64,000 nt of DNA, taken from NCBI GenBank assembly GCA_900753325.1, contig CAADYO010000009.1, forward strand, positions 2,333-66,332, given 5' to 3'. Every line of letters starts with the position of its first letter. Position 1 is the first letter of the stretch. The stretch comes from Bacilli bacterium (GTDB lineage: Bacteria > Bacillota_I > Bacilli_A > RF39 > UBA660). Below, one piece after another: positions 2,409 through 60,436 of this stretch. The notes beneath the pieces were generated by a model, which was not told the origin of the DNA, made no database searches, and was given only the letters and a program-made list of their open reading frames with translations. A program made the position numbers and the translations under genes.

Positions 2409-3005
2409 ATGAAAAAAGCATTTCTAGAGTCATCTTTAAGTTTTATTCAAAATTATAAAGATTTTTCTGAACATGATATTGATAAGTTACGATATGGCTT
2501 GGAAGGCATTTATCTAACAATTGAAAAACTTGTAGTGATTGTTGCTGTTAGTTTATTACTGGGTATATTAAAAGAAGTTGTTATAACTTTGGTTTTGTTT
2601 AATATCATTCGTTTTACTGGATTTGGTTTCCATGCCGAAAAAAGTATTCAATGCTTATTTATTTCATTATTTCAATTTGTCTTTGTTCCATATATTTTTA
2701 TTAGCTTACATATATCTAAATATGTTATGTTAGCTATTTGTGGAATTTGTATTATTAGTTACATATTATTTGCTCCTGCTGATACTATTAAAAGACCATT
2801 ACCAAATAAAAGAAAAAGAACCATTCGCAAATGGGCAACTGTTTTGACTGGTATTATCTATACATTAATAATAGCGTTTTTCAATTCATTTTTAACACCA
2901 TTGTTATTAAGTTCATTAATCATTGAAGCTATTGTTATTAATCCTTTACTTTATATGGCATTTAATCAACCATATAATAATTATAGGAACTACGTTCAGG
3001 CTTAA
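2409..3005 (+). CDS. agrB: AgrB-family accessory gene regulator protein B (AgrD-processing membrane cysteine endopeptidase)
   Basis: 198 aa polytopic membrane protein. GFGFHAEKSIQCLFIS places His and Cys 7 residues apart, as the catalytic H77/C84 pair of staphylococcal AgrB. It is followed by an AgrD-like peptide gene and flanked by an AgrC/AgrA-like two-component pair. Confidence 0.8.
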   Translation: MKKAFLESSLSFIQNYKDFSEHDIDKLRYGLEGIYLTIEKLVVIVAVSLLLGILKEVVITLVLFNIIRFTGFGFHAEKSIQCLFISLFQFVFVPYIFISLHISKYVMLAICGICIISYILFAPADTIKRPLPNKRKRTIRKWATVLTGIIYTLIIAFFNSFLTPLLLSSLIIEAIVINPLLYMAFNQPYNNYRNYVQA

Positions 3006-3050
3006 AATATCTAATATTTTAGCATAAATTAAAAAAGGAGGACAAATATT

Positions 3051-3173
3051 TTGAAAAGTAAAATCGCGTATTTACTATCAGCAATCGCAATGTTAGCTAC
3101 AGGAGCAGCTAGTTTAGGATGTATTTGGTTTCTTGTTGATGAACCTAAAGCTATGAAAAGTCTTTGTGATTAA
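3051..3173 (+). CDS. agrD: AgrD-like autoinducing-peptide precursor (40 codons, TTG start)
   Basis: Not in the ORF track (shorter than 60 aa). RBS AAAAAGGAGGA lies 7 nt upstream of TTG 3051. Translation: MKSKIAYLLSAIAMLATGAASLGCIWFLVDEPKAMKSLCD. It has an N-terminal amphipathic leader, a Cys followed by four hydrophobic residues (CIWFL, the thiolactone-ring geometry of staphylococcal AIPs), then an acidic D-E-P-K tail like the conserved AgrD C-terminal recognition motif. It lies directly after agrB. Confidence 0.7.
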   Translation: MKSKIAYLLSAIAMLATGAASLGCIWFLVDEPKAMKSLCD

Positions 3174-3176
3174 TTA

Positions 3177-3203
3177 AAAAGTGTCCTATTTAGACACTTT
3201 TTT
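3177..3203. terminator. Bidirectional intrinsic terminator between convergent agrBD and agrAC
   Basis: AAAAGTGTC-ctattta-GACACTTTT is a perfect 9-bp stem with A-run before and T-run after. It sits between the agrD stop (3173) and the agrC stop (3186). Confidence 0.65.
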
Positions 3204-4487
3204 CTTTATTGTAATTTCTTGAATATAATATTTGTCAATTACTTCTTGCCTTTGACTTAGCCAGGGATTTTCAGAAATTAGTTTAGAAGCAAAGTACAAA
3301 CCGTTACCATGCCCTGCACCTTTTGAGGAAACACCTTTCTTATTTCTTTCATTAAAGTTCTTAGTTTTTTTAAAAGTATTGGAGAAAACAAAAGTTACAT
3401 GATCTTTTATCTCATAAACTTCAACAAGAACTTTCTTTTTTCTTGTTTCACGAGCAGCTTCAATAGCGTTATCAAAATAAATGCCAATCAGTTGACATAA
3501 TATCTTAACATCTTTTTCAGGTAGTTTTGATAACAGCGAATGCAATTCTAGACTTACATCAACAGTTAGGTCTATTTTATTCTTTTGAGCAATGGCAGCT
3601 TTATAGTACATTAAGCCTTTGATTCCACCTTTAGGTAGTGATTTAAGTTGATGAACTACCTCGCCTTCTATATTAATACTATCTTCTAATATGTCATCAA
3701 TCTTATCTTTTACTTTCTTTTCAGAGGTAAGGCAGCGTAATACGGCTAATTGATTTTTGTACTCATGACGATTTAATTGTTCTTTTTCAATCCAATCCTC
3801 AAAGTTTTGAACATATGTAAACAAATTCTCATATTCTGAATTTAATTTTTCATAATTATTTTTACCCTTTATAAAAAAGTATGATAATAAAAAGAAAATT
3901 ATCATTATCGTAATATTTACATAATAATTTGATTCCCCGGCATTTACCATTGATACGTTTTGTCCTAATGAACTCAATCCAATAATTAGCAAAACCACAA
4001 ATAATATATTTGAAACCGATTTATTTCTCGAAATACTATTGTAGAAATTTTGTAACTGACGGAGAATAAGCTTTACTTTCAATGTAATCATGCCAAATAT
4101 TGCGACTAGAATATTGCTTAATATATATAAGTATCCAGTTGAGCGAATTTGTTTTAATGTAAAACATTTCATTAATAAAAATCCACTCATTAAATCACCA
4201 AATATTGTAAGCATCATTACTATTCCACAGGCTATAAGTGATTCTTCAACTTTTAGGTTAAACATTTCTTTATAAACAATAATTTGTAGTGCAAAAATTG
4301 CAATTGTTCCAATTCCTGCATATTCCTTTTTTGATATAAATATTGTTGCTAAGCATAATACTATAATCTGAATAATGGTTTTCGGGCTCAACACCTTTAT
4401 TTCACGATTTGTTATTTTTTCTATTACAAAAATCCCAAATATTGTCATTATCAATGCACATATTAATCTAGCGCAAACCTCTAACAT
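3186..4487 (-). CDS. agrC: AgrC-like membrane sensor histidine kinase (HPK10 family)
   Basis: 433 aa. The N-terminal about 200 aa is polytopic membrane sensor. H-box NRHEYKNQLAVL matches AgrC RHDYxN. The C-terminus has the GHKL ATPase (GAGHGNGLYFASKLI). It overlaps the upstream LytTR regulator by 20 nt. Confidence 0.8.
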   Translation of the reverse strand: MLEVCARLICALIMTIFGIFVIEKITNREIKVLSPKTIIQIIVLCLATIFISKKEYAGIGTIAIFALQIIVYKEMFNLKVEESLIACGIVMMLTIFGDLMSGFLLMKCFTLKQIRSTGYLYILSNILVAIFGMITLKVKLILRQLQNFYNSISRNKSVSNILFVVLLIIGLSSLGQNVSMVNAGESNYYVNITIMIIFFLLSYFFIKGKNNYEKLNSEYENLFTYVQNFEDWIEKEQLNRHEYKNQLAVLRCLTSEKKVKDKIDDILEDSINIEGEVVHQLKSLPKGGIKGLMYYKAAIAQKNKIDLTVDVSLELHSLLSKLPEKDVKILCQLIGIYFDNAIEAARETRKKKVLVEVYEIKDHVTFVFSNTFKKTKNFNERNKKGVSSKGAGHGNGLYFASKLISENPWLSQRQEVIDKYYIQEITIKKKVSK

Positions 4488-5199
4488 ATCTTTCTAACTC
4501 CTTTCTCTTTTCTCTAGCTACGGCTTCTAGCTTTTCATTGTTTTTAAAAGTTATTACATTTAACTTAGTATCATAATGTTCTACTTGTTCAACATTTACA
4601 TATAGGCTTCTACTACATTTTATAAAACGCTTATCTAATTCTTTAGCAATTGTACTTAAACTACCTGGCATATGATAATTTCCATTAATCGTTTTAATCA
4701 TACTTATCTTTGAGTCTTGAACTTTTTCAATATAAAGGATGTGTCTCAGTTCAATATTATATGAAACATTATGATAATTATACTTTATACTTTTAAACCT
4801 TTTATCATAATGCTTCATACATATTTGAAGGGCTTCCCTTAGTCTTTTTTCACAATTATCTAGTTTATTAATAAAGTCAACTAACATCAATCTTTTTCCT
4901 AGTGCTTCGTATTTAAATTCTGAGTATGCTGTTATTATCATTATCATTGATACCCAATCATCAAATTCTTCTCTTATTCTCCTTGCGGCATCTATACCTG
5001 AACCATTGGTTGTTTTTATATCTAGTAGATATATTTTAAAATCTTTTTCACTTTTTACAAACTCTTCCCATTTGTCTGTGTAGCCTCTGAATCTATATAT
5101 CTTATACTCTGCATCATTACTCATCATAAATTTATCAATTTCGCTTATATATTTCTTGGCTAAAATATCTTCATCTTCACATATTACAAAATTAATCAT
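4468..5199 (-). CDS. agrA: AgrA-like response regulator (receiver + LytTR DNA-binding domain)
   Basis: 243 aa. N-terminal receiver (MINFVICEDEDIL...LLDIKT). The C-terminal 100 aa have LytTR-like composition. It is translationally coupled to the histidine kinase. Confidence 0.75.
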   Translation of the reverse strand: MINFVICEDEDILAKKYISEIDKFMMSNDAEYKIYRFRGYTDKWEEFVKSEKDFKIYLLDIKTTNGSGIDAARRIREEFDDWVSMIMIITAYSEFKYEALGKRLMLVDFINKLDNCEKRLREALQICMKHYDKRFKSIKYNYHNVSYNIELRHILYIEKVQDSKISMIKTINGNYHMPGSLSTIAKELDKRFIKCSRSLYVNVEQVEHYDTKLNVITFKNNEKLEAVAREKRKELERYVRGLR

Positions 5200-7554: not shown

Positions 7555-8190
7555 TTACTCTTCAGTCTTTGATAATTCTTTATCTAAATAAAGTGTAGGA
7601 TCAACTATTTGACCATTAGCATAAAATTCAAAATGTAAGTGATTTCCCATCTCTTTATCTAATTCATTAGTACCAGATTTACCAATTGTTTGTCCTTGAT
7701 TAATACTATCACCTTTTTTTACCGAAACTTCAGATAAGCTCTGATATACTGAAACATAACCATTATCATGCTTTACTTGAACTGTTTTTCCTAAACTTTC
7801 ATTATCACTTACGTCAGCAACTGTTCCTGGTAAAACAGCAATTACTTCAAATACATTTTGACTTATAAAATCAATTCCTGAATTTTGTAAGTATGTATTA
7901 TCATGATAGATTATAGATTTTTCTTGTTGTTCTTTTGTACCTTTATAATCATAAAAGTATTTTCCTATTGTTACTGATGGATCAGTATATGGATTTGAAA
8001 CTTTAGTACTAGTATTAATAACTGCTACATCATTATTTAAAATAGTACTTGTTACGTAGTCAACATTACTTAATTGATCATTTGCTTTACCAGATTCTTT
8101 CATACTAATTATACTTGCAAATACTCCAACTATTATTAAAAATGTTGCTATACTCGGTATTACAAAGGGTTTTAATTTTCTTTTTACCAT
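7555..8190 (-). CDS. Membrane-anchored M23/LytM-family metalloendopeptidase (SpoIIQ-like position next to mreB/mbl)
   Basis: 211 aa with an N-terminal TM segment. C-terminal LytM domain has an intact HLHFEFYANGQIVDP motif (HxH). Confidence 0.7.
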   Translation of the reverse strand: MVKRKLKPFVIPSIATFLIIVGVFASIISMKESGKANDQLSNVDYVTSTILNNDVAVINTSTKVSNPYTDPSVTIGKYFYDYKGTKEQQEKSIIYHDNTYLQNSGIDFISQNVFEVIAVLPGTVADVSDNESLGKTVQVKHDNGYVSVYQSLSEVSVKKGDSINQGQTIGKSGTNELDKEMGNHLHFEFYANGQIVDPTLYLDKELSKTEE

Positions 8191-8240
8191 TTTTTCACCT
8201 CATTATAAGTTTTTACAAAAAAAAAAGATTTATACTTCTT

Positions 8241-8438
8241 TTAAAAATTTTTTCCAGAAGTGAATAAATCCATTATAAAGTTTGTTACTAAATAAATCAT
8301 TGAAATTCCTAGTAAAAAGTAAAAAACACGAGCTTGGGCAATTTTATTTTTTTTAAAAATTTGATTTATATTTACAGAGTCAAGTGCCCAAATAACTATA
8401 ATTGTTACAGCTATATATAGAAAAAATTTTCCTGACAT
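8241..8438 (-). CDS. Small two-TM membrane protein, unknown function
   Basis: 65 aa hydrophobic ORF that abuts rpiB (its start and the rpiB stop share position 8438). No recognisable motif. Confidence 0.35.
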   Translation of the reverse strand: MSGKFFLYIAVTIIVIWALDSVNINQIFKKNKIAQARVFYFLLGISMIYLVTNFIMDLFTSGKNF

Positions 8439-8881
8439 TAATGACTTTCCTCATAGGCTTTTATTTTATTGATTCTGCGATTATGTTTTTCTAAATTTGA
8501 AAATTTTGTATTTATAAAAGTTTTTACTATTTCTAGGGCTTCTTCAAAACTTGTTTTTTCACCAAATGCTACTATATTAGAATCATTATCTATTCTTGTT
8601 ACCTCAGCTTCTTCTTTTGTTGTAACTTTAGCACAGCGTACTCCTTTTACTTTATTGCAGGCTATACTTATACCAATTCCTGAACCACAGATTGCTACTC
8701 CATAATCTACATTTTTATTTACAACGTTTTCTCCTAGTATAAAAGCATAATCAGGATAGTCTGTTGATTCTTTAGAATTAGTTCCATAGTCTATTACTTC
8801 ATAATTTTCTTTTATTAAGGCTTCTTTTAATTTTTCTTTTAATTCGTAACCTCTATGGTCACTAGCAATTCCTATTTTCAT
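8438..8881 (-). CDS. rpiB: Ribose-5-phosphate isomerase B (RpiB/LacAB family)
   Basis: 147 aa; MKIGIASDHRGYELKEKLKEAL...GSGIGISIACNKVKGVRCA. Confidence 0.85.
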   Translation of the reverse strand: MKIGIASDHRGYELKEKLKEALIKENYEVIDYGTNSKESTDYPDYAFILGENVVNKNVDYGVAICGSGIGISIACNKVKGVRCAKVTTKEEAEVTRIDNDSNIVAFGEKTSFEEALEIVKTFINTKFSNLEKHNRRINKIKAYEESH

Positions 8882-9038
8882 TTTTATTTCTCCTTGAATT
8901 TAATTTTTGAAATGACCTGGTGTTTATAAATAATTATATTCCAAATTCATATGTTAGTATCATTTCATAATGGAAAAATATTAATAACTTGTGGTATTCT
9001 TCCTATTTGAATATATCATAAAAGCAAAATAAAAGCTA

Positions 9039-9257
9039 CTATTTAGCAGCTTCTGTTTGATTTAGACCATATTTCCTATTAAATTTGTCAACTCTACCAG
9101 CACGAGATGCTCTACTTTGTTTTCCTGTATAGAATGGATGACATTTTGAACAAACTTCTACACTGATTTCTGGTTTTGTAGATTTAACAGTAAATGTTTC
9201 TCCACATGCACATGTAACTTTACAATCTACCATTTCTGGATGTATATCTTTTTTCAT
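9039..9257 (-). CDS. rpmE: 50S ribosomal protein L31 (Zn-ribbon type A)
   Basis: 72 aa; [22 protein letters not shown]...[10 protein letters not shown] contains both CxxC pairs. Confidence 0.9.
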
Positions 9258-9317
9258 ACTATCTCTCCTTCCGCCATGACAACACTTGTCATAGTAATTA
9301 AATGCGTTATTAGTATA

Positions 9318-10061
9318 TCAGCTATTTTGAATTGGGTCAAGTTTTTTTGATATTTTATCAATGATTTCTACTGATATTGCTTGATATCCATAACGATTTG
9401 GATAAATACTTTGTTTTCTAGAACGATAACTTTTGTTATTTTTAAATATAGAATATGTATCAATATAAATTACATCTTTATTTTTTCTGAAAATATCATT
9501 TAACTTTATTATGCCTTTATTTTGTGGGCTATTATTATCATAAATATTATAATAACCTATTACATATATATCATATTGATAGTATTTTTTTATTTCAATT
9601 ATCAATTCTTTAAAAGACTTTTCAATATTGTTTATTATTATATCAATATTATTATTTGTAACATTATCACTTATACTTAATTGATATAGTAGATCGTTTA
9701 AACCGATTGACAATGTTAGAATTGTACTTTCTCGTAATGTTTGTCTTATATTTAACTCATGATTGTTTAAATTTATTTTTTTATTAGTTCCTATCATTTC
9801 TTTTAAACTGGTTATGGACATAGTTTCCTCTGAAAATGATTTTATATATTTATTCAAATAATTATTTTTTTGTAGATAATCTTTTACATAATCACTATAA
9901 CCATAATCTATTTGTCCATAGGAGTCTTTTCCTAGAGCAAAACCATCTCCTAATGAAAGATAACTTTGATTATTTTGATTGTTTATTTTGAATATTAAAA
10001 ATATTAAAATTATTACTAATATAGTAATTATTAATTTATAATGTTTTTTTAGGAACTTCAT
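9318..10061 (-). CDS. SGNH/GDSL-like hydrolase-fold lipoprotein (block I Ser replaced by Gly; possibly non-catalytic)
   Basis: 247 aa with N-terminal TM/signal. LSLGDGFALG resembles GDSL block I but has G instead of the nucleophilic S. GLNDL resembles block III GxND. Confidence 0.4.
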   Translation of the reverse strand: MKFLKKHYKLIITILVIILIFLIFKINNQNNQSYLSLGDGFALGKDSYGQIDYGYSDYVKDYLQKNNYLNKYIKSFSEETMSITSLKEMIGTNKKINLNNHELNIRQTLRESTILTLSIGLNDLLYQLSISDNVTNNNIDIIINNIEKSFKELIIEIKKYYQYDIYVIGYYNIYDNNSPQNKGIIKLNDIFRKNKDVIYIDTYSIFKNNKSYRSRKQSIYPNRYGYQAISVEIIDKISKKLDPIQNS

Positions 10062-12872: not shown

Positions 12873-13394
12873 TTAAAAATACTTATCTATTATCTCTTTA
12901 ATAAATGATGTATATTCTACATCGTCTTTTTCTGTTTCTTCTGCTTCTAATAAGCATAATGGTGGGAATAATACACACCAGAAATTATCACCTAGGCCGT
13001 CGCCTAATGTTATTACAAGAGACTCATATTCTCCCTCTTCATAGACGATATTTTTATATTCTTTTTCTGGAAAATAATTTTTTCCATAATTGATACTATA
13101 ATTATCTTTATATGACTCATTAGAAATTGTTTGCTCTACTACTTTTTCAAAATTATGAATATTTTTATTAATTATTTCCCTAGAAGTTTTTATATTCTTA
13201 GAATAGTTATTAATAGTGCGAATTTCATTTTGAAGGTTGTTTACGACTTGTTTTTTTACTTGTTGATCGTTTTCACTGTTACTATTAGCAATTACTCTAA
13301 ATCTTATGGAGTTTTTGGGTATAATAGTTTTTTCACTCTTTGTAAATGATAATAGTGCAATTAATATGCTTAAAATTATTATGGCTTTTTTCAT
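12873..13394 (-). CDS. spoIIR: SpoIIR-family secreted signalling protein (stage II sporulation protein R-like)
   Basis: 173 aa with signal peptide. IRFRVIANSNSENDQQVKKQVVNNL matches the hallmark RLHVIANSDSxxDQxLK block of SpoIIR, and WCVLFPPLC matches its C-terminal conserved region. Confidence 0.6.
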   Translation of the reverse strand: MKKAIIILSILIALLSFTKSEKTIIPKNSIRFRVIANSNSENDQQVKKQVVNNLQNEIRTINNYSKNIKTSREIINKNIHNFEKVVEQTISNESYKDNYSINYGKNYFPEKEYKNIVYEEGEYESLVITLGDGLGDNFWCVLFPPLCLLEAEETEKDDVEYTSFIKEIIDKYF

Positions 13395-46934: not shown

Positions 46935-47065
46935 ACAGTTTCCACAGATATGTGGAATATTAAAATAAGGTGTGTGGAATAAAAATTGTGGAAAATGTGG
47001 AAAAGTTATTTTTATTATTTTATATCAATAGTTTTATTTGTGGAAAAAATTGTGGATTGTGTGTT
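46935..47065. promoter_or_regulatory. oriC part 1: DnaA-box cluster and dnaA promoter region
   Basis: At least six 9-mers within 0-2 mismatches of TTATCCACA/TGTGGATAA (TTTCCACAG, TGTGGAATA x2, TGTGGAAAA x3, TGTGGATTG) in 130 bp upstream of dnaA. Confidence 0.7.
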
Positions 47066-47155
47066 GAAAAAAATTTTTACAATAAAATTGTTTATTTTTT
47101 TCACAATTTAATGTACACTAATCGTAGTTTATTTATCTTGTGGGGAGATGGTGGA

Positions 47156-48539: not shown

Positions 48540-48654
48540 ATTTTTATCCACAAGTAAATGTTAACAAAAATGAATGATAAATAAAGAAAAAAATAAGTTT
48601 TCAACTTTTTCCACAGTAATAATATAAATAATAAAAGAAAGAAGGAATATATAT
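48540..48654. promoter_or_regulatory. oriC part 2: DnaA boxes plus AT-rich unwinding region between dnaA and dnaN
   Basis: Perfect TTATCCACA at 48544-48552 and TTTTCCACA near 48606. The stretch between them is more than 85% AT. Confidence 0.6.
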
Positions 48655-49782
48655 ATGAAATTTACAATTAAGAAAGATTTATTATTAGATGCTTTAAATA
48701 AAGTTGCTAGAGCAATTTCTACAAAAAACTTAATTCCAGTATTGGCAGGTGTTAAGTTTGATTTAAAAAAGAAAAAATTAACATTAACAGCAAGTGATAA
48801 TGATATTACAATTCAAACTGTTATTGAAAGTAATAATGAGGATGACTTTAAAATAGAAAATGAAGGAAGTATTATTATACAAGGTAAGTATATTCTAGAT
48901 ATTGTTAGAAAATTACCAGATAAATATATTAATATAGAAGTAGTTGATGAATTAAAAATATTGATTTACACAGAAAATAGTGAATTTAATTTAAATGGAA
49001 TTAGTGAAAGTGAATATCCTAATATAGGACTTGAAGAAAGTAAGAAAAAAGTTAGTATTAATGCTGGAATTTTTAAAAATATTGTTAATCAAACTGCTTT
49101 TGCTTCTTCAAATGAAGAAAGTAAACCTGTTCTTACGGGAATTAATTTTAATATAGTAGGGGATGTTTTAGAGTGTAATTCAACAGATTCTTATCGTTTA
49201 GCTAGAAAAATAGTTAAATTAGATAAGGAAAGTGAAGAAAATTATAATATTGTAATTCCAAGTCATAATATAGTAGAATTTTGTAAGATTTTAACTGATG
49301 ATGATGAAACTGTTGAATTACATATATTTAATAATAAAATATTATTTAAAACTGGTAATTTAAAATTTGAATCAAGGTTAATTAATGGTACATATCCTAA
49401 TACTTCAAATTTATTACCAGATGATTCTTTATTAGTAGTTAGTACAAATCTTAACGATTTTTATGATGTTATTGATCGTGTAAGTATTTTAACTAGCGAT
49501 AAAGAAAAAAATATTGTTACTTTAGAAACTGTTGATGATGTATTGATTCTTAGAAGTAGTTCTGCTGAGATTGGTAGAGTTGAAGAAAAAATGCCAATTA
49601 CCAAAAATAATAATGAAAATATTAAAATTTCATTTAGTGCAAAATACATGATGGAAGCATTAAAAAGTTTTTCCACAGAAACTGTTGATATTCATTTTGT
49701 AGGTGAAATTAAACCAATTTTAATTAAATCTAGTGAAGATACAAGTCTTACTCAATTAGTTTTACCTATAAGAACTTATTAA
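48655..49782 (+). CDS. dnaN: DNA polymerase III beta sliding clamp
   Basis: 375 aa; MKFTIKKDLLLDALNKVARAIS. Confidence 0.9.
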   Translation: MKFTIKKDLLLDALNKVARAISTKNLIPVLAGVKFDLKKKKLTLTASDNDITIQTVIESNNEDDFKIENEGSIIIQGKYILDIVRKLPDKYINIEVVDELKILIYTENSEFNLNGISESEYPNIGLEESKKKVSINAGIFKNIVNQTAFASSNEESKPVLTGINFNIVGDVLECNSTDSYRLARKIVKLDKESEENYNIVIPSHNIVEFCKILTDDDETVELHIFNNKILFKTGNLKFESRLINGTYPNTSNLLPDDSLLVVSTNLNDFYDVIDRVSILTSDKEKNIVTLETVDDVLILRSSSAEIGRVEEKMPITKNNNENIKISFSAKYMMEALKSFSTETVDIHFVGEIKPILIKSSEDTSLTQLVLPIRTY

Positions 49783-49943
49783 TTTTATGTGGTAAAAGTA
49801 ATATTTTTGCTAATAATATTAATAGAAGATTACAAAAATCTTCTATTTTTTTGTTTGTTCTATATATTTTGACAAAATTTGACAAGAAGATTTGCTATAT
49901 TTGTGAGTGAAAACGCACAGTTTTCATTTAAGGGGGAATTTAT

Positions 49944-50390
49944 ATGAAATACGAATTTAGTAAAGGAACATTAGCAATTGTTCCAAATGAAAATGAAAGT
50001 AGTTTGGTCTATGAAGACGACGATAGATATATCATTGATCAAACACCATTTAAAATAATGGAGGAGAGCTGTAAGTATTTTGGTAGTACTTATGCTGGAC
50101 GAAAAGATAGTGCACGATCTATTTTAGGAGCTGAATATAAGGTACCTATTATTGTAGAAGATAGTGATAATTTAATTGTTTTTCCAACAACTTCGCCACA
50201 GTCTACTGATTGTACATGGGTATCATTGAAAAGAATTAAATCGTTTGTAAAAATTGACTCAAGTAATACAAAAATAATTTTTGATAATGGTAAAGAGATT
50301 ATTGTTCCATGTTCATATAGAACAATAGAAAACCAAGTTTCGAGGGCTTCTAGATTAGATTTAATTATGCGTAGTAGAAAAAATCGTTAA
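49944..50390 (+). CDS. comK: ComK-family competence transcription factor
   Basis: 148 aa; aligns along its whole length with B. subtilis ComK. LAIVPNEN / ATIAVLPEE; SCKYFGSTYAGRK / SCRFFGSSYAGRK; VPIIVEDSDNLIVFPTTSPQSTDCTWVS / PPIMVDPSNQIFLFPTLSSTRPQCGWIS; FDNGKEIIVPCSYRTIENQVSRASRL / FSNGKTMELPISYNSFENQVYRTAWL. Confidence 0.8.
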   Translation: MKYEFSKGTLAIVPNENESSLVYEDDDRYIIDQTPFKIMEESCKYFGSTYAGRKDSARSILGAEYKVPIIVEDSDNLIVFPTTSPQSTDCTWVSLKRIKSFVKIDSSNTKIIFDNGKEIIVPCSYRTIENQVSRASRLDLIMRSRKNR

Positions 50391-50524
50391 AATTTAGAAA
50401 AAATAGTTATTTATAACTATTTTTTAGTGCTTTATTTGGCCTCTTATGATATAATATGTATGTGTGTATAGGAATACTGAAATAGGGGATAGGTGAAGCA
50501 TATGTGGCTTTTTTACGGATTTAA

Positions 50525-51637
50525 ATGAAAATATCAAAAATTAATTTAGTAAATTTTAGAAATTATTCTAATATTACAGTCACTTTTAGTGATAAAATGA
50601 ATATTTTTATTGGTGATAATGCTCAAGGTAAGACAAATATTTTAGAATCTATTGTTATTTTGGCACTTACTAAATCACATCGTGTTGGTAATAATCCTAA
50701 TATAATTCAATTTAATAAGAGTAAGTGTACAATAAAGGGAACAGTAAAAAATAATAATATAACTTCTAAATTAGGGATTATAGTTACACCTGATAGTAAA
50801 AAAATTATGATTAATCAGACCGATATTAAAAAAGTTGCTGATTATATTTCTAATCTTAATGTTATTATTTTTACGCCTGATGATTTGGATATAATTAAAA
50901 GTTCTCCTAATATTAGAAGAAATTTACTTAATATTCAATTGTCGCAAATTTCTAAAGTTTATTTGAATACTTATAATGAATATAATAAAATTTTAAAGAC
51001 AAGAAATGAGTATTTAAAGATACTTTTTAGTAGTAGTGTAGCTGATAAAAATTATTTAGATATTATTACTGATAGATTAATAGAAAAGGCTGTTATTATT
51101 TATAAAAAACGAGAAGAATATTTAAATTTAGTTAATGAAAAGATAGATTACTATTTCAGAGAAATTTCTAATACATCTGGTTTAAAGATTATTTATTCAC
51201 CAAATGTTTCATTTCAAAAATATGATATATTGGATATGAAAAATACTTTAAAGAATATTTTTGAAAAAAATTATTATAAAGAATTGAACTATGGTATGAC
51301 TTTGTTTGGTCCACATAGAGATGATTTTATTTTTAAGTTTAATGATTGTGATTTAAAATACTTTGGGTCTCAAGGTCAGCAAAAACTAGCCGTTTTAGCT
51401 TTTAAATTGGCAGAAGTTGATATTTTTGAGACTATGTCTGGTAGCTATCCAGTATTATTGTTGGATGATATATTTAGTGAGTTTGATTTAAAGAAACAAA
51501 ATAAACTACTAAAATTGATTAATAGTAAAAATATTCAAAGTATTTTAACTACAACAAATTTAAAGGGAATAAATAAAAAGTATTTAGATGATTCTTATAT
51601 ATATAAAGTAGAAAATGGGAAAATTGAAAGAAAGTAG
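50525..51637 (+). CDS. recF: DNA replication and repair protein RecF
   Basis: 370 aa; Walker [16 protein letters not shown]-like signature. Confidence 0.9.
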
Positions 51638-56963: not shown

Positions 56964-56992
56964 TTTACAAAAAGTTACATATATATTAGAAT
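56964..56992 (+). promoter_or_regulatory. Sigma-A promoter of ffs (SRP RNA)
   Basis: -35 TTTACA (56964-56969), 17-bp spacer, -10 TAGAAT (56987-56992); transcription start about 6-8 nt downstream. Confidence 0.6.
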
Positions 56993-56998
56993 AATATC

Positions 56999-57079
56999 GT
57001 GCAATGAAAGCGGTGGAAACAGGTCAGGATTGGAAAATAGCAGCCTTAACATTAAACTTTCATGTGCACTTTTTATTTT
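56999..57079 (+). ncRNA. ffs: Small (4.5S-type) signal recognition particle RNA
   Basis: ACAGGUCAGG-AUU-GGAA-AAU-AGCAGCC reproduces the universally conserved SRP RNA domain IV (helix 8): symmetric loop AGG / AGCAGCC closed by a 3-bp stem and GGAA tetraloop. The terminal stem GUGCAAUGAAAG / CUUUCAUGUGCAC closes the hairpin. A U-tract (TTTTTATTTT, 57070-57079) follows. The ORF-track N-terminus of the tadA ORF (57004) overlaps this RNA and is spurious. Confidence 0.65.
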
Positions 57080-57090
57080 GGGTGATTATT

Positions 57091-60241: not shown

Positions 60242-60436
60242 ATGGAAATGTTGAAAAAAATATTATTTATAATTAAAAGATTGGTTTTAAGCGCGTTTAT
60301 ATTGTATGGATATAATTTAATTGCTGTTAATTTTAATATGATTGTTCCTATTAATTATTATACTGTTGGTTTTGTTACTTTATTAGGGGCTCCAGCATTA
60401 GTTGCATTAGTCTTATTTAAAATTTTGGCATTGTAG
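60242..60436 (+). CDS. bofA: BofA-like small membrane protein (pro-sigma-K processing inhibitor family)
   Basis: 64 aa with 2 TM. IVPINYYTVGFVTLLGAPALVALVLFKIL aligns with B. subtilis BofA HVPINLVTTAISGILGIPGIAALVVIKQFI. Conserved position after recR. Confidence 0.55.
   Translation: MEMLKKILFIIKRLVLSAFILYGYNLIAVNFNMIVPINYYTVGFVTLLGAPALVALVLFKILAL

Follow-up and report, generated by a model that had tools for sequence, protein, structure and literature searches.

To our knowledge, nearly everything understood about ComK derives from Bacillus and a handful of other cultured Firmicutes, each with the long form of the protein. The Bacillus subtilis comK promoter (PcomK) is bound directly by phosphorylated Spo0A (Spo0A~P) at five sites (PMC3297582), and in Streptococcus pneumoniae comCDE lies at about -1 degree from the replication origin (oriC), where replication stress raises its dosage enough to set off competence (PMC5034851, PMC8394987). 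ComK, a comK gene gated by Spo0A and origin-proximal competence switches are kinds of system that are already known. The subject here is a short comK gene in 64,000 nucleotides of DNA from a Bacilli bacterium of order RF39, family UBA660 (GenBank assembly GCA_900753325.1, contig CAADYO010000009.1, positions 2,333 to 66,332 of the forward strand); this whole stretch is referred to as the window. The gene encodes a full-domain ComK-family protein which is under selection and has a DNA-binding type of fold, and it possesses its own promoter and terminators and a fixed position on the origin side. Taken as a whole, the locus is best explained, and with reasonable probability, as a functional short-form ComK gene forming its own transcription unit under a promoter of putative Spo0A boxes, and as a core gene of RF39 beside oriC.

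Locus and origin context

The guanine plus cytosine (GC) content of the window is about 29% and the sign of its GC skew flips near 46.5 kb. The gene order is rnpA-rpmH, followed by dnaA-dnaN-comK-recF-gyrB-gyrA.

48655..49782, + strand: dnaN, DNA polymerase III beta clamp (Pfam DNA_pol3_beta, _2 and _3 domains; syntenic in all related loci)
49944..50390, + strand: comK, short-form ComK-family DNA-binding protein of 148 amino acids (ATG start; Pfam ComK 146.2 bits)
50525..51637, + strand: recF (Pfam SMC_N; own promoter and leader; syntenic in 90/91 loci)
46987..47047: DnaA-box cluster upstream of dnaA (canonical TTTTCCACA, three copies)
48544..48615: DnaA-box cluster between dnaA and dnaN (boxes at 48544 and 48607; canonical TTATCCACA and TTTTCCACA)

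The initial annotation of this DNA had placed a ComK-like protein of 148 amino acids in the slot between dnaN and recF, which we take to be occupied by the S4-domain gene yaaA/rlbA on the B. subtilis map. The open reading frame (ORF) at 49944..50390 was confirmed, and the ORF list contains no S4-domain or yaaA-like ORF in the dnaN-recF interval of the window. The gap between dnaN and comK measures 161 bp (49783..49943). Canonical DnaA boxes cluster both upstream of dnaA and between dnaA and dnaN, as in a typical bipartite oriC, and this puts comK about 3 kb from the origin. The longest dnaA ORF (GTG at 46970) overlaps the DnaA boxes, and the true start of dnaA is probably an internal methionine near 47153.

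The nearest relatives, all of them uncultured gut genomes, bear the labels Mycoplasma sp. CAG:877, Bacilli or Tenericutes. In GTDB the genus CAG-877 belongs to order RF39, family UBA660, according to the supplement to PMC10868615.

The ComK protein

The match to the ComK profile (PF06338; E 8.5e-43, cutoff 22.3) covers positions 3-150 of 152, that is, nearly the whole profile. BLASTP against B. subtilis ComK (sequence confirmed by exact look-up as COMK_BACSU, 192 amino acids) gave 34% identity over 146 amino acids (E 2e-33), with window residues 3-145 corresponding to ComK 12-157. The block-for-block similarity to B. subtilis ComK that had been reported from inspection was thus reproduced, the FGSxYAGRK and PT.S....C.W[IV]S blocks aligning with the window protein. 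NCBIfam has no model matching the protein; its assignment to the ComK family is secure.

Since the aligned residues are ComK 12-157, the last 35 and the first 9 amino acids of the B. subtilis protein are absent. The window protein ends at the equivalent of ComK residue 160, and the activation and tetramer tail of the B. subtilis type (about 25-35 amino acids) was not found. The initial annotation was right that the C-terminus is shortened, although by 35 residues and not the approximately 40 it gave.

Such a protein could be viewed as a decaying remnant, a truncated pseudogene, for which its being shorter than the B. subtilis protein is the argument. The gene has a median ratio of nonsynonymous to synonymous substitution (dN/dS) of 0.12 against 49 relatives, and is therefore under purifying selection; the Pfam domain is full, and the length is 147-154 amino acids in almost all of about 80 related species. 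Clustered at 50%, the ComK family comprises 1309 representatives; of the 150 best, a large share are of 145-157 amino acids and the others of about 185-200. The short form is not exceptional within the family. An alignment of 50 ComK sequences (34-86% identity) contains 18 invariant residues, including C43, G47, S48, G52, R53, P81, T82 and W92. Together with a confident structure model, the conservation data effectively refute the pseudogene hypothesis, which was rejected as extremely improbable.

The AlphaFold2 model of the window protein, built with 50 homologues, has a predicted local distance difference test score (pLDDT) of 94.7 and a predicted template modelling score (pTM) of 0.89. It consists of a mostly beta core and a single long C-terminal helix (residues 125-147), and its top structural matches are LytTR domains. 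This resemblance is not new, as a 2026 preprint already groups ComK structurally with AgrA-LytTR and RemA (PMC13232269). A sequence search of the PDB revealed no solved ComK structure.

Conservation of the dnaN-comK-recF arrangement

The order dnaA-dnaN-comK-recF-gyrB-gyrA was found in all of 80 species-level loci from RF39 and its allies, as far as the contigs reach, with ComK identities of 52-86% and RecF identities of 56-79%. In a profile search with distant short ComKs, the six matches that were looked up all had dnaN-comK-recF; three of these loci were compared with the window, and their DnaA proteins were 51-57% and their ComK proteins 40-45% identical to those encoded there. Five further contigs were found by DNA motif alone, carrying ComKs 30-75% identical to that of the window, and dnaN-comK-recF was present in four of them.

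The remaining one (L090, metagenome contig OIZX01002034.1, 24% GC) has dnaA-dnaN, three TTCGACA units and comK, followed by spoIIGA and sigE instead of recF.

OIZX01002034.1, reverse-complement 8066..9481: comK-spoIIGA-sigE, 43 nt between comK and spoIIGA (spoIIGA Pfam Peptidase_U4 152 bits; pro-sigma-E N-terminus)

Only a weak hairpin lies between comK and spoIIGA, and comK appears to head a classic Spo0A-dependent spoIIG operon in this lineage, the nearest relatives of which keep the usual dnaN-comK-recF. The tally is 90 loci with recF downstream of comK and one with the spoIIG operon. What had been considered an unusual position for a ComK, next to recF, thus proves to be the conserved rule in a large clade and no insertion peculiar to one genome; dnaN-comK-recF is a conserved ancestral arrangement. 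Literature searches, partly loosely framed, returned nothing relevant on comK between dnaN and recF, on competence in RF39, or on com genes in RF39/UBA660.

So constant a linkage invites the explanation that the ComK fold has been repurposed for a role in the chromosome, replication or sporulation entry, with regulation of recF-gyrBA or of sigma-E activation instead of DNA uptake, and that the linkage to dnaN and recF reflects this role. The arrangement persists in 90 of 91 loci, spanning lineages in which DnaA shares only about 46-57% identity with that of the window; in L090 comK precedes spoIIGA-sigE with little between them; and no characterised short-form ComK activates com genes (PMC3128618). 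Linkage alone is weak evidence, however, because gene order near oriC is generally very stable, and a terminator insulates comK from recF, which has its own conserved promoter, leader and upstream ORF (uORF). We regard this explanation as quite unlikely, and prefer that of a stand-alone comK unit under its own promoter.

The comK promoter and transcription unit

Upstream regions of 77 related comK genes were aligned; the alignment anchored on the -10 element counts 67 sequences. Nearly all of the 77 share one layout: a repeat array, an extended -10 element, an inverted repeat directly after it, and GGGGG. The corresponding features of the window, with the terminators on either side of comK, are as follows.

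49821..49854, + strand: dnaN intrinsic terminator, an 11-bp hairpin (49821-49847) followed by 7 T (-10 kcal/mol, z -4.75)
49858..49884, + strand: array of three units with 10-bp spacing, TTCTATA (degenerate), TTTGACA and TTTGACA (units at 49858, 49868 and 49878)
49893..49901, + strand: extended -10 element TGcTATATT (TGnTAnnnT at the equivalent place in 57/77 species)
49905..49929, + strand: hairpin where the comK mRNA is predicted to begin, 10-bp stem and 5-nt loop (-9.5 kcal/mol, z -4.65)
49932..49936, + strand: Shine-Dalgarno sequence GGGGG, 7 nt before the comK ATG (AGGGGGA in 62/77 upstream regions)
50398..50425, + strand: comK terminator, 12-bp A/U-rich stem with the U-run as its 3' arm (-8.5 kcal/mol, z -3.35; equivalent in relatives)

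The tandem TTGACA hexamers noted earlier in the roughly 160-bp upstream region are present at 49868..49884 and belong to an array found throughout the clade. The tandem TTTGACA-N3-TTTGACA is the sole match in the window, where 0.13 would be expected by chance. Related promoters carry 2-5 direct repeats with the consensus TTCGACA, a 10-bp period and 3-bp spacers; the exact TTCGACA occurs in 28 of the 77, and successive units are 10 or 20 bp apart in 25 of 27 cases. In the -10-anchored alignment the core G, A, C and A of the unit are conserved in 45-55 of the 67 sequences in both proximal units. The strict tandem motif occurred 12 times in 931 kb of related loci; all 12 copies precede comK, and the oriC flanks hold none.

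The extended -10 sits about 11 bp after the last repeat in the related upstream regions. A canonical sigma-70 scan gave no promoter with 16-18 bp spacing, and hence no -35, at the comK -10. The TTGACA hexamers of the window are separated from the -10 by 11 and 21 bp, distances at which neither is a normal -35. Scans for canonical sigma-70 promoters and for GC-rich terminators were blank at the relevant places because the elements are non-canonical and AT-rich, and folding was used instead. Of the two upstream elements to which regulation had been ascribed, the TTGACA repeats are real and probably regulatory; the cre-like element (catabolite-responsive element, bound by CcpA) did not hold up as an operator.

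The cre-like string TGAAAACGCACA is indeed present at 49909..49920, where it makes up the 5' arm and loop of the hairpin, and TGAAAACGCACAGTTTTCA falls within the same 10-bp-stem structure at 49905-49929. The cre consensus WTGNAANCGNWNNCW has no match at 49900-49930 even with one mismatch allowed, a search that gave 16 matches in the window where chance predicts 24. In 57 of 77 species there is a stem of at least 7 bp, versus about 35% of shuffled controls. A stem of at least 6 bp anchored by G...C was found in 51 of the 77, with loops of 3-10 nt and one outlier of 18, and among these 51 compensatory pair changes occur at stem positions 2, 5 and 7 (for example A-U to G-C). A CcpA operator cannot tolerate spacing between half-sites that varies between species, and a cre/CcpA site was rejected on the unmatched consensus, the half-site distance of 3-10 nt and the covarying stem. 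The element is best read as an RNA hairpin beginning a few bases past the -10, and thus at the predicted 5' end of the mRNA, a placement deduced from the -10. In Firmicutes, 5' hairpins typically shield transcripts from 5'-end-dependent decay. Rfam gave no match better than E 3.5 for this hairpin or for the recF leader.

None of 200 shuffles folded as well as the dnaN terminator, and a hairpin with a T-run is present in many relatives. Lying between two terminator hairpins, comK is probably monocistronic.

The array as putative Spo0A boxes

Read on the opposite strand, TTCGACA becomes TGTCGAA, the Spo0A box (0A box). Spo0A contacts G2, C4 and G5 of this core (PMC3485338), and functional sites are often pairs of boxes with 3 bp between them (PMC2731898). 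Per proximal unit, 45-50 of the 67 sequences keep the bases equivalent to G2 and C4, while the G5-equivalent is the consensus base but varies. The window units at 49868 and 49878 show the 3-bp spacer and 10-bp period of tandem 0A boxes.

Metagenome contigs were scanned for TCGACA-N4-TCGACA-N4-TCGACA. Among the matches listed, comK promoters account for 5 of about 10 array matches on low-GC contigs, and four contigs of two lineages (L093; L088/L139/L185) carry the triple array about 130-190 nt upstream of a full-length spo0A, where it reads TGTCGAA-N3-TGTCGAA-N3-TGTCGAG on the coding strand. Triple arrays, likewise among the matches listed, were also situated upstream of spoVS, histidine kinases and soj/parA, and these are candidate Spo0A targets in uncultured spore formers.

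L098, 1545..1570: array upstream of soj/parA (26% GC contig)
L162, 8601..8626: array upstream of spoVS (34% GC contig)
L134 and L136: arrays upstream of two histidine kinases (62-64% GC contigs)

The same array is found at an accepted Spo0A target, spo0A, and also ahead of spoVS, the histidine kinases and the comK-spoIIGA-sigE genes of L090. No ComK gene lies near the arrays on the spo0A and kinase contigs (58-64% GC) or on the spoVS contig (34% GC). Since arrays stand before spo0A, which is autoregulated by Spo0A, with no ComK nearby, Spo0A is favoured over ComK as the binder, and a Spo0A-box array is, we infer from these sequence comparisons, the best reading of the phased TTCGACA units.

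Binding by a different factor was considered, the candidates being ComK itself, in positive autoregulation at a site that has diverged; the LytTR response regulator encoded by the window's agr-like module; and DnaA. The concentration of low-GC matches at comK (the 5 of about 10 among those listed) is how an autoregulatory site would look, the ComK fold is LytTR-like and LytTR proteins bind direct repeats, and the locus adjoins oriC. LytTR sites are, however, 9-bp repeats about 21 bp apart, and the period of the array is 10 bp. The arrays before spo0A, spoVS and the kinases, with no ComK gene nearby, speak against ComK, which might yet be encoded elsewhere in those organisms. Tandem array units are absent from the dnaA-flanking regions of the 80 loci. 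DnaA boxes were rejected as the identity of the array, the canonical boxes TTATCCACA/TTTTCCACA clustering elsewhere and the core being GACA versus CACA. A binder other than Spo0A is in our estimation unlikely, and the Spo0A-box array is retained as the preferred interpretation.

Several points weigh against it. The scan gave at least 120 matches, many of which are simple satellite repeats. In place of TGTCGAA the window has TGTCAAA twice, a single mismatch which falls on the contact base G5; a G5-to-A change cut Spo0A affinity about 10-fold in Clostridioides difficile gel shifts (PMC3485338), and the same contact base is the least conserved position of the clade motif. The gene spo0A was not found in the window or 10 kb either side of it, nor in the RF39 contigs that were read. 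A machine-learning classifier gave RF39 a sporulation probability of 0% (PMC12536801). At B. subtilis PcomK, boxes overlapping the -35 region are repressive (PMC3297582), so that Spo0A may here either activate or repress. A K-box reading of the repeats or hairpin was set aside because the AAAA-N5-TTTT spacing does not fit, as read from the alignment with no dedicated K-box scan, and because the loop length varies; chance K-boxes are uninformative, being too frequent in DNA of 29% GC.

In favour of the Spo0A reading, spo0A has been reported in RF39/UBA660 genomes and RF39 is predicted to be spore-forming (PMC11536998, PMC10868615). Sporulation-specific genes were also observed at and near the window, in a lineage labelled Mycoplasma or Tenericutes in databases.

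12873..13394, - strand: spoIIR (Pfam 135.7 bits)
60242..60436, + strand: small membrane protein with a weak BofA match
L205, 15607..16137, just past the right edge of the window: SpoVT (MazE and SpoVT_C)

The link to Spo0A is well supported for the clade; for this genome, where the window boxes carry G5A, we infer it only. The results support the view that lineages carrying the labels Mycoplasma or Tenericutes retain a developmental circuit centred on Spo0A.

Proposed function

In the mechanism that we propose, comK would encode a functional transcription factor with a LytTR-like beta fold and one long C-terminal helix. RF39, an uncultured gut order with reduced genomes, and the relatives of that order have comK as a core gene whose slot, at a distance of about 3 kb from oriC, is fixed. 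Transcription would start after the dnaN terminator from the extended -10, without a properly spaced -35, and the 2-5 phased TTCGACA units, acting as Spo0A boxes, would overlap the -35 and spacer region of PcomK. Spo0A~P is predicted to gate comK expression at stationary phase or sporulation entry, as it does at B. subtilis PcomK, and the 5'-terminal hairpin presumably stabilises the transcript. The origin-side position might make comK dosage track replication status, as for pneumococcal comCDE. More weakly, ComK may control DNA-uptake and recombination genes; lacking the C-terminal tail, it might work as a dimeric activator of a simpler kind, or else repress its targets.

A role in competence is plausible, and DNA uptake for nucleotide salvage would be a plausible, if speculative, payoff since RF39 genomes are reduced and auxotrophic (PMC12306168). 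Three observations count against such a role. The 64-kb window and the 10 kb to its left and right contain no com genes; deletion of the 25 C-terminal amino acids of B. subtilis ComK left DNA binding intact and abolished activation (PMC3128618, citing Susanna 2006); and the naturally truncated B. cereus ComK2 lowered comG expression (PMC3128618). As the tail is missing, RF39 ComK may work unlike the textbook activator. The designation master competence regulator, given to the gene at first, is not supported, there being no com genes in the window or the adjoining 10 kb and no activation tail.

The classical scheme would have the protein as a master competence activator like that of B. subtilis, with K-box autoregulation and catabolite control through cre, switching on comG, comE and comF. 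Family membership is clear and the core motifs are conserved, and DNA-uptake genes have been reported in a reduced-genome gut lineage, although a different one (PMC12306168). The scheme is nevertheless improbable: the 35-residue tail is absent, when removal of 25 residues abolishes activation by B. subtilis ComK (PMC3128618); com genes are missing from the window and 10 kb either side; the cre consensus is unmatched and its half-site spacing differs between species; and the repeat array does not fit AAAA-N5-TTTT in the alignment, a comparison made with no dedicated K-box scan.

A further proposal, which we put forward tentatively and regard as rather doubtful, is that in RF39 and related gut Bacilli with reduced genomes the short ComK belongs to the Spo0A regulon as an origin-tethered developmental switch, responding to Spo0A~P and, through gene dosage, to replication status, and linking sporulation entry to DNA uptake and recombination or directly to sigma-E activation, at which the comK-spoIIGA-sigE order of one lineage hints. 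If true, this would be a use of ComK unlike the Bacillus paradigm.

In any case, a whole order of uncultured bacteria that abound in human and animal guts has a short ComK as a syntenic core gene next to the origin of replication, with a conserved and testable promoter design of putative Spo0A-box array, extended -10 and 5' hairpin. If the proposed wiring is real, the ComK programme is coupled to sporulation entry and possibly to replication status, and its outputs may include the uptake of DNA, whether to exchange genes or, in auxotrophs, to scavenge nucleotides. The arrays provide concrete DNA probes for binding assays which need no culturing.

The recF promoter and leader

The following elements precede recF.

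50447..50455, + strand: recF operon promoter, extended -10 TGaTATAAT (TATG[GA]TATAAT nearly invariant in 80 loci)
50465..50477, + strand: recF leader element TGTATAGGAATAC, 57 nt from the recF ATG
50502..50528, + strand: uORF of 8 codons (MWLFYGFK), served by an AGGTGA ribosome-binding site of its own and ending in a TGA that overlaps the recF ATG

The leader element TGTATAGGAATAC is present in 78 of 80 loci, in 67 of them exactly 57 nt from the recF ATG. An equivalent uORF (consensus M-[GCS]-L-[FL]-x-[GV]-F-K) was identified in 77 of 80 loci, with stop-start overlap (ATGA) in 73 of 80. Because recF itself lacks a ribosome-binding site, its translation is probably coupled to that of the uORF. 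RNA folding revealed no stable fold in the leader. The comK-recF spacer (50431..50528) outdoes coding DNA in conservation, in about 78 of 80 species.

Other features of the window

An agr-like quorum-sensing module (2409..5199) is made up of three genes.

2409..3005, + strand: AgrB-family protein
3186..4487, - strand: GHKL histidine kinase
4468..5199, - strand: LytTR response regulator

An ORF of 768 amino acids at 22107..24413 (- strand) gave a weak match to the HopA1 effector family (23.9 bits), and the C-terminal half of its product is long, acidic and of low complexity. A small signal recognition particle RNA (56990..57085, 51.7 bits) is located between gyrA and a deaminase/tadA-like gene, and an L31 ribosomal-protein leader was identified at 9265..9294 (34.7 bits).

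Comparison with known systems

B. subtilis ComK belongs to the same Pfam family as the window protein and is 34% identical to it over the whole core, the FGSSYAGRK- and PT.S...C.WIS-type blocks being common to both. The B. subtilis protein is the longer, with 35 C-terminal and 9 N-terminal amino acids that are absent from the window ComK, and its gene, we assume, is not adjacent to oriC. Direct binding of Spo0A~P to several 0A sites in the B. subtilis comK promoter (PMC3297582) is the wiring that is proposed for RF39 comK. The B. subtilis promoter also has K-boxes and inputs from Rok, CodY, DegU and AbrB, whereas that of the window is read as a regular 10-bp array abutting the -10.

The sole characterised short ComK is B. 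cereus ComK2 (BC5250), a paralogue without the C-terminal activation region (22 amino acids) (PMC3128618). ComK2 coexists with a full-length ComK1, while RF39, in the regions examined, showed no ComK besides the short form, which is there a syntenic core gene.

The slot between dnaN and recF is shared with yaaA/rlbA, to which RF39 comK has no relationship of sequence or fold. At spoIIG the Spo0A boxes lie across a -35-like hexamer, with about 21 bp between it and the -10. The geometry of the window PcomK resembles that of such Spo0A-dependent promoters, its predicted boxes overlapping a hexamer 21 bp from the -10. The clade array shares its consensus 7-bp core and the 3-bp spacer with the Spo0A-dependent promoters of abrB, spo0A, spoIIG and spoIIE (PMC2731898, PMC3485338). 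Relative to the gene, the PcomK boxes are reversed in comparison with the arrays upstream of spo0A, and those of the window carry the G5A deviation. The comCDE genes of S. pneumoniae encode a quorum-sensing system of the two-component type that uses a peptide pheromone, in contrast to RF39 comK, which is a stand-alone factor for which a dosage effect is suggested by analogy.

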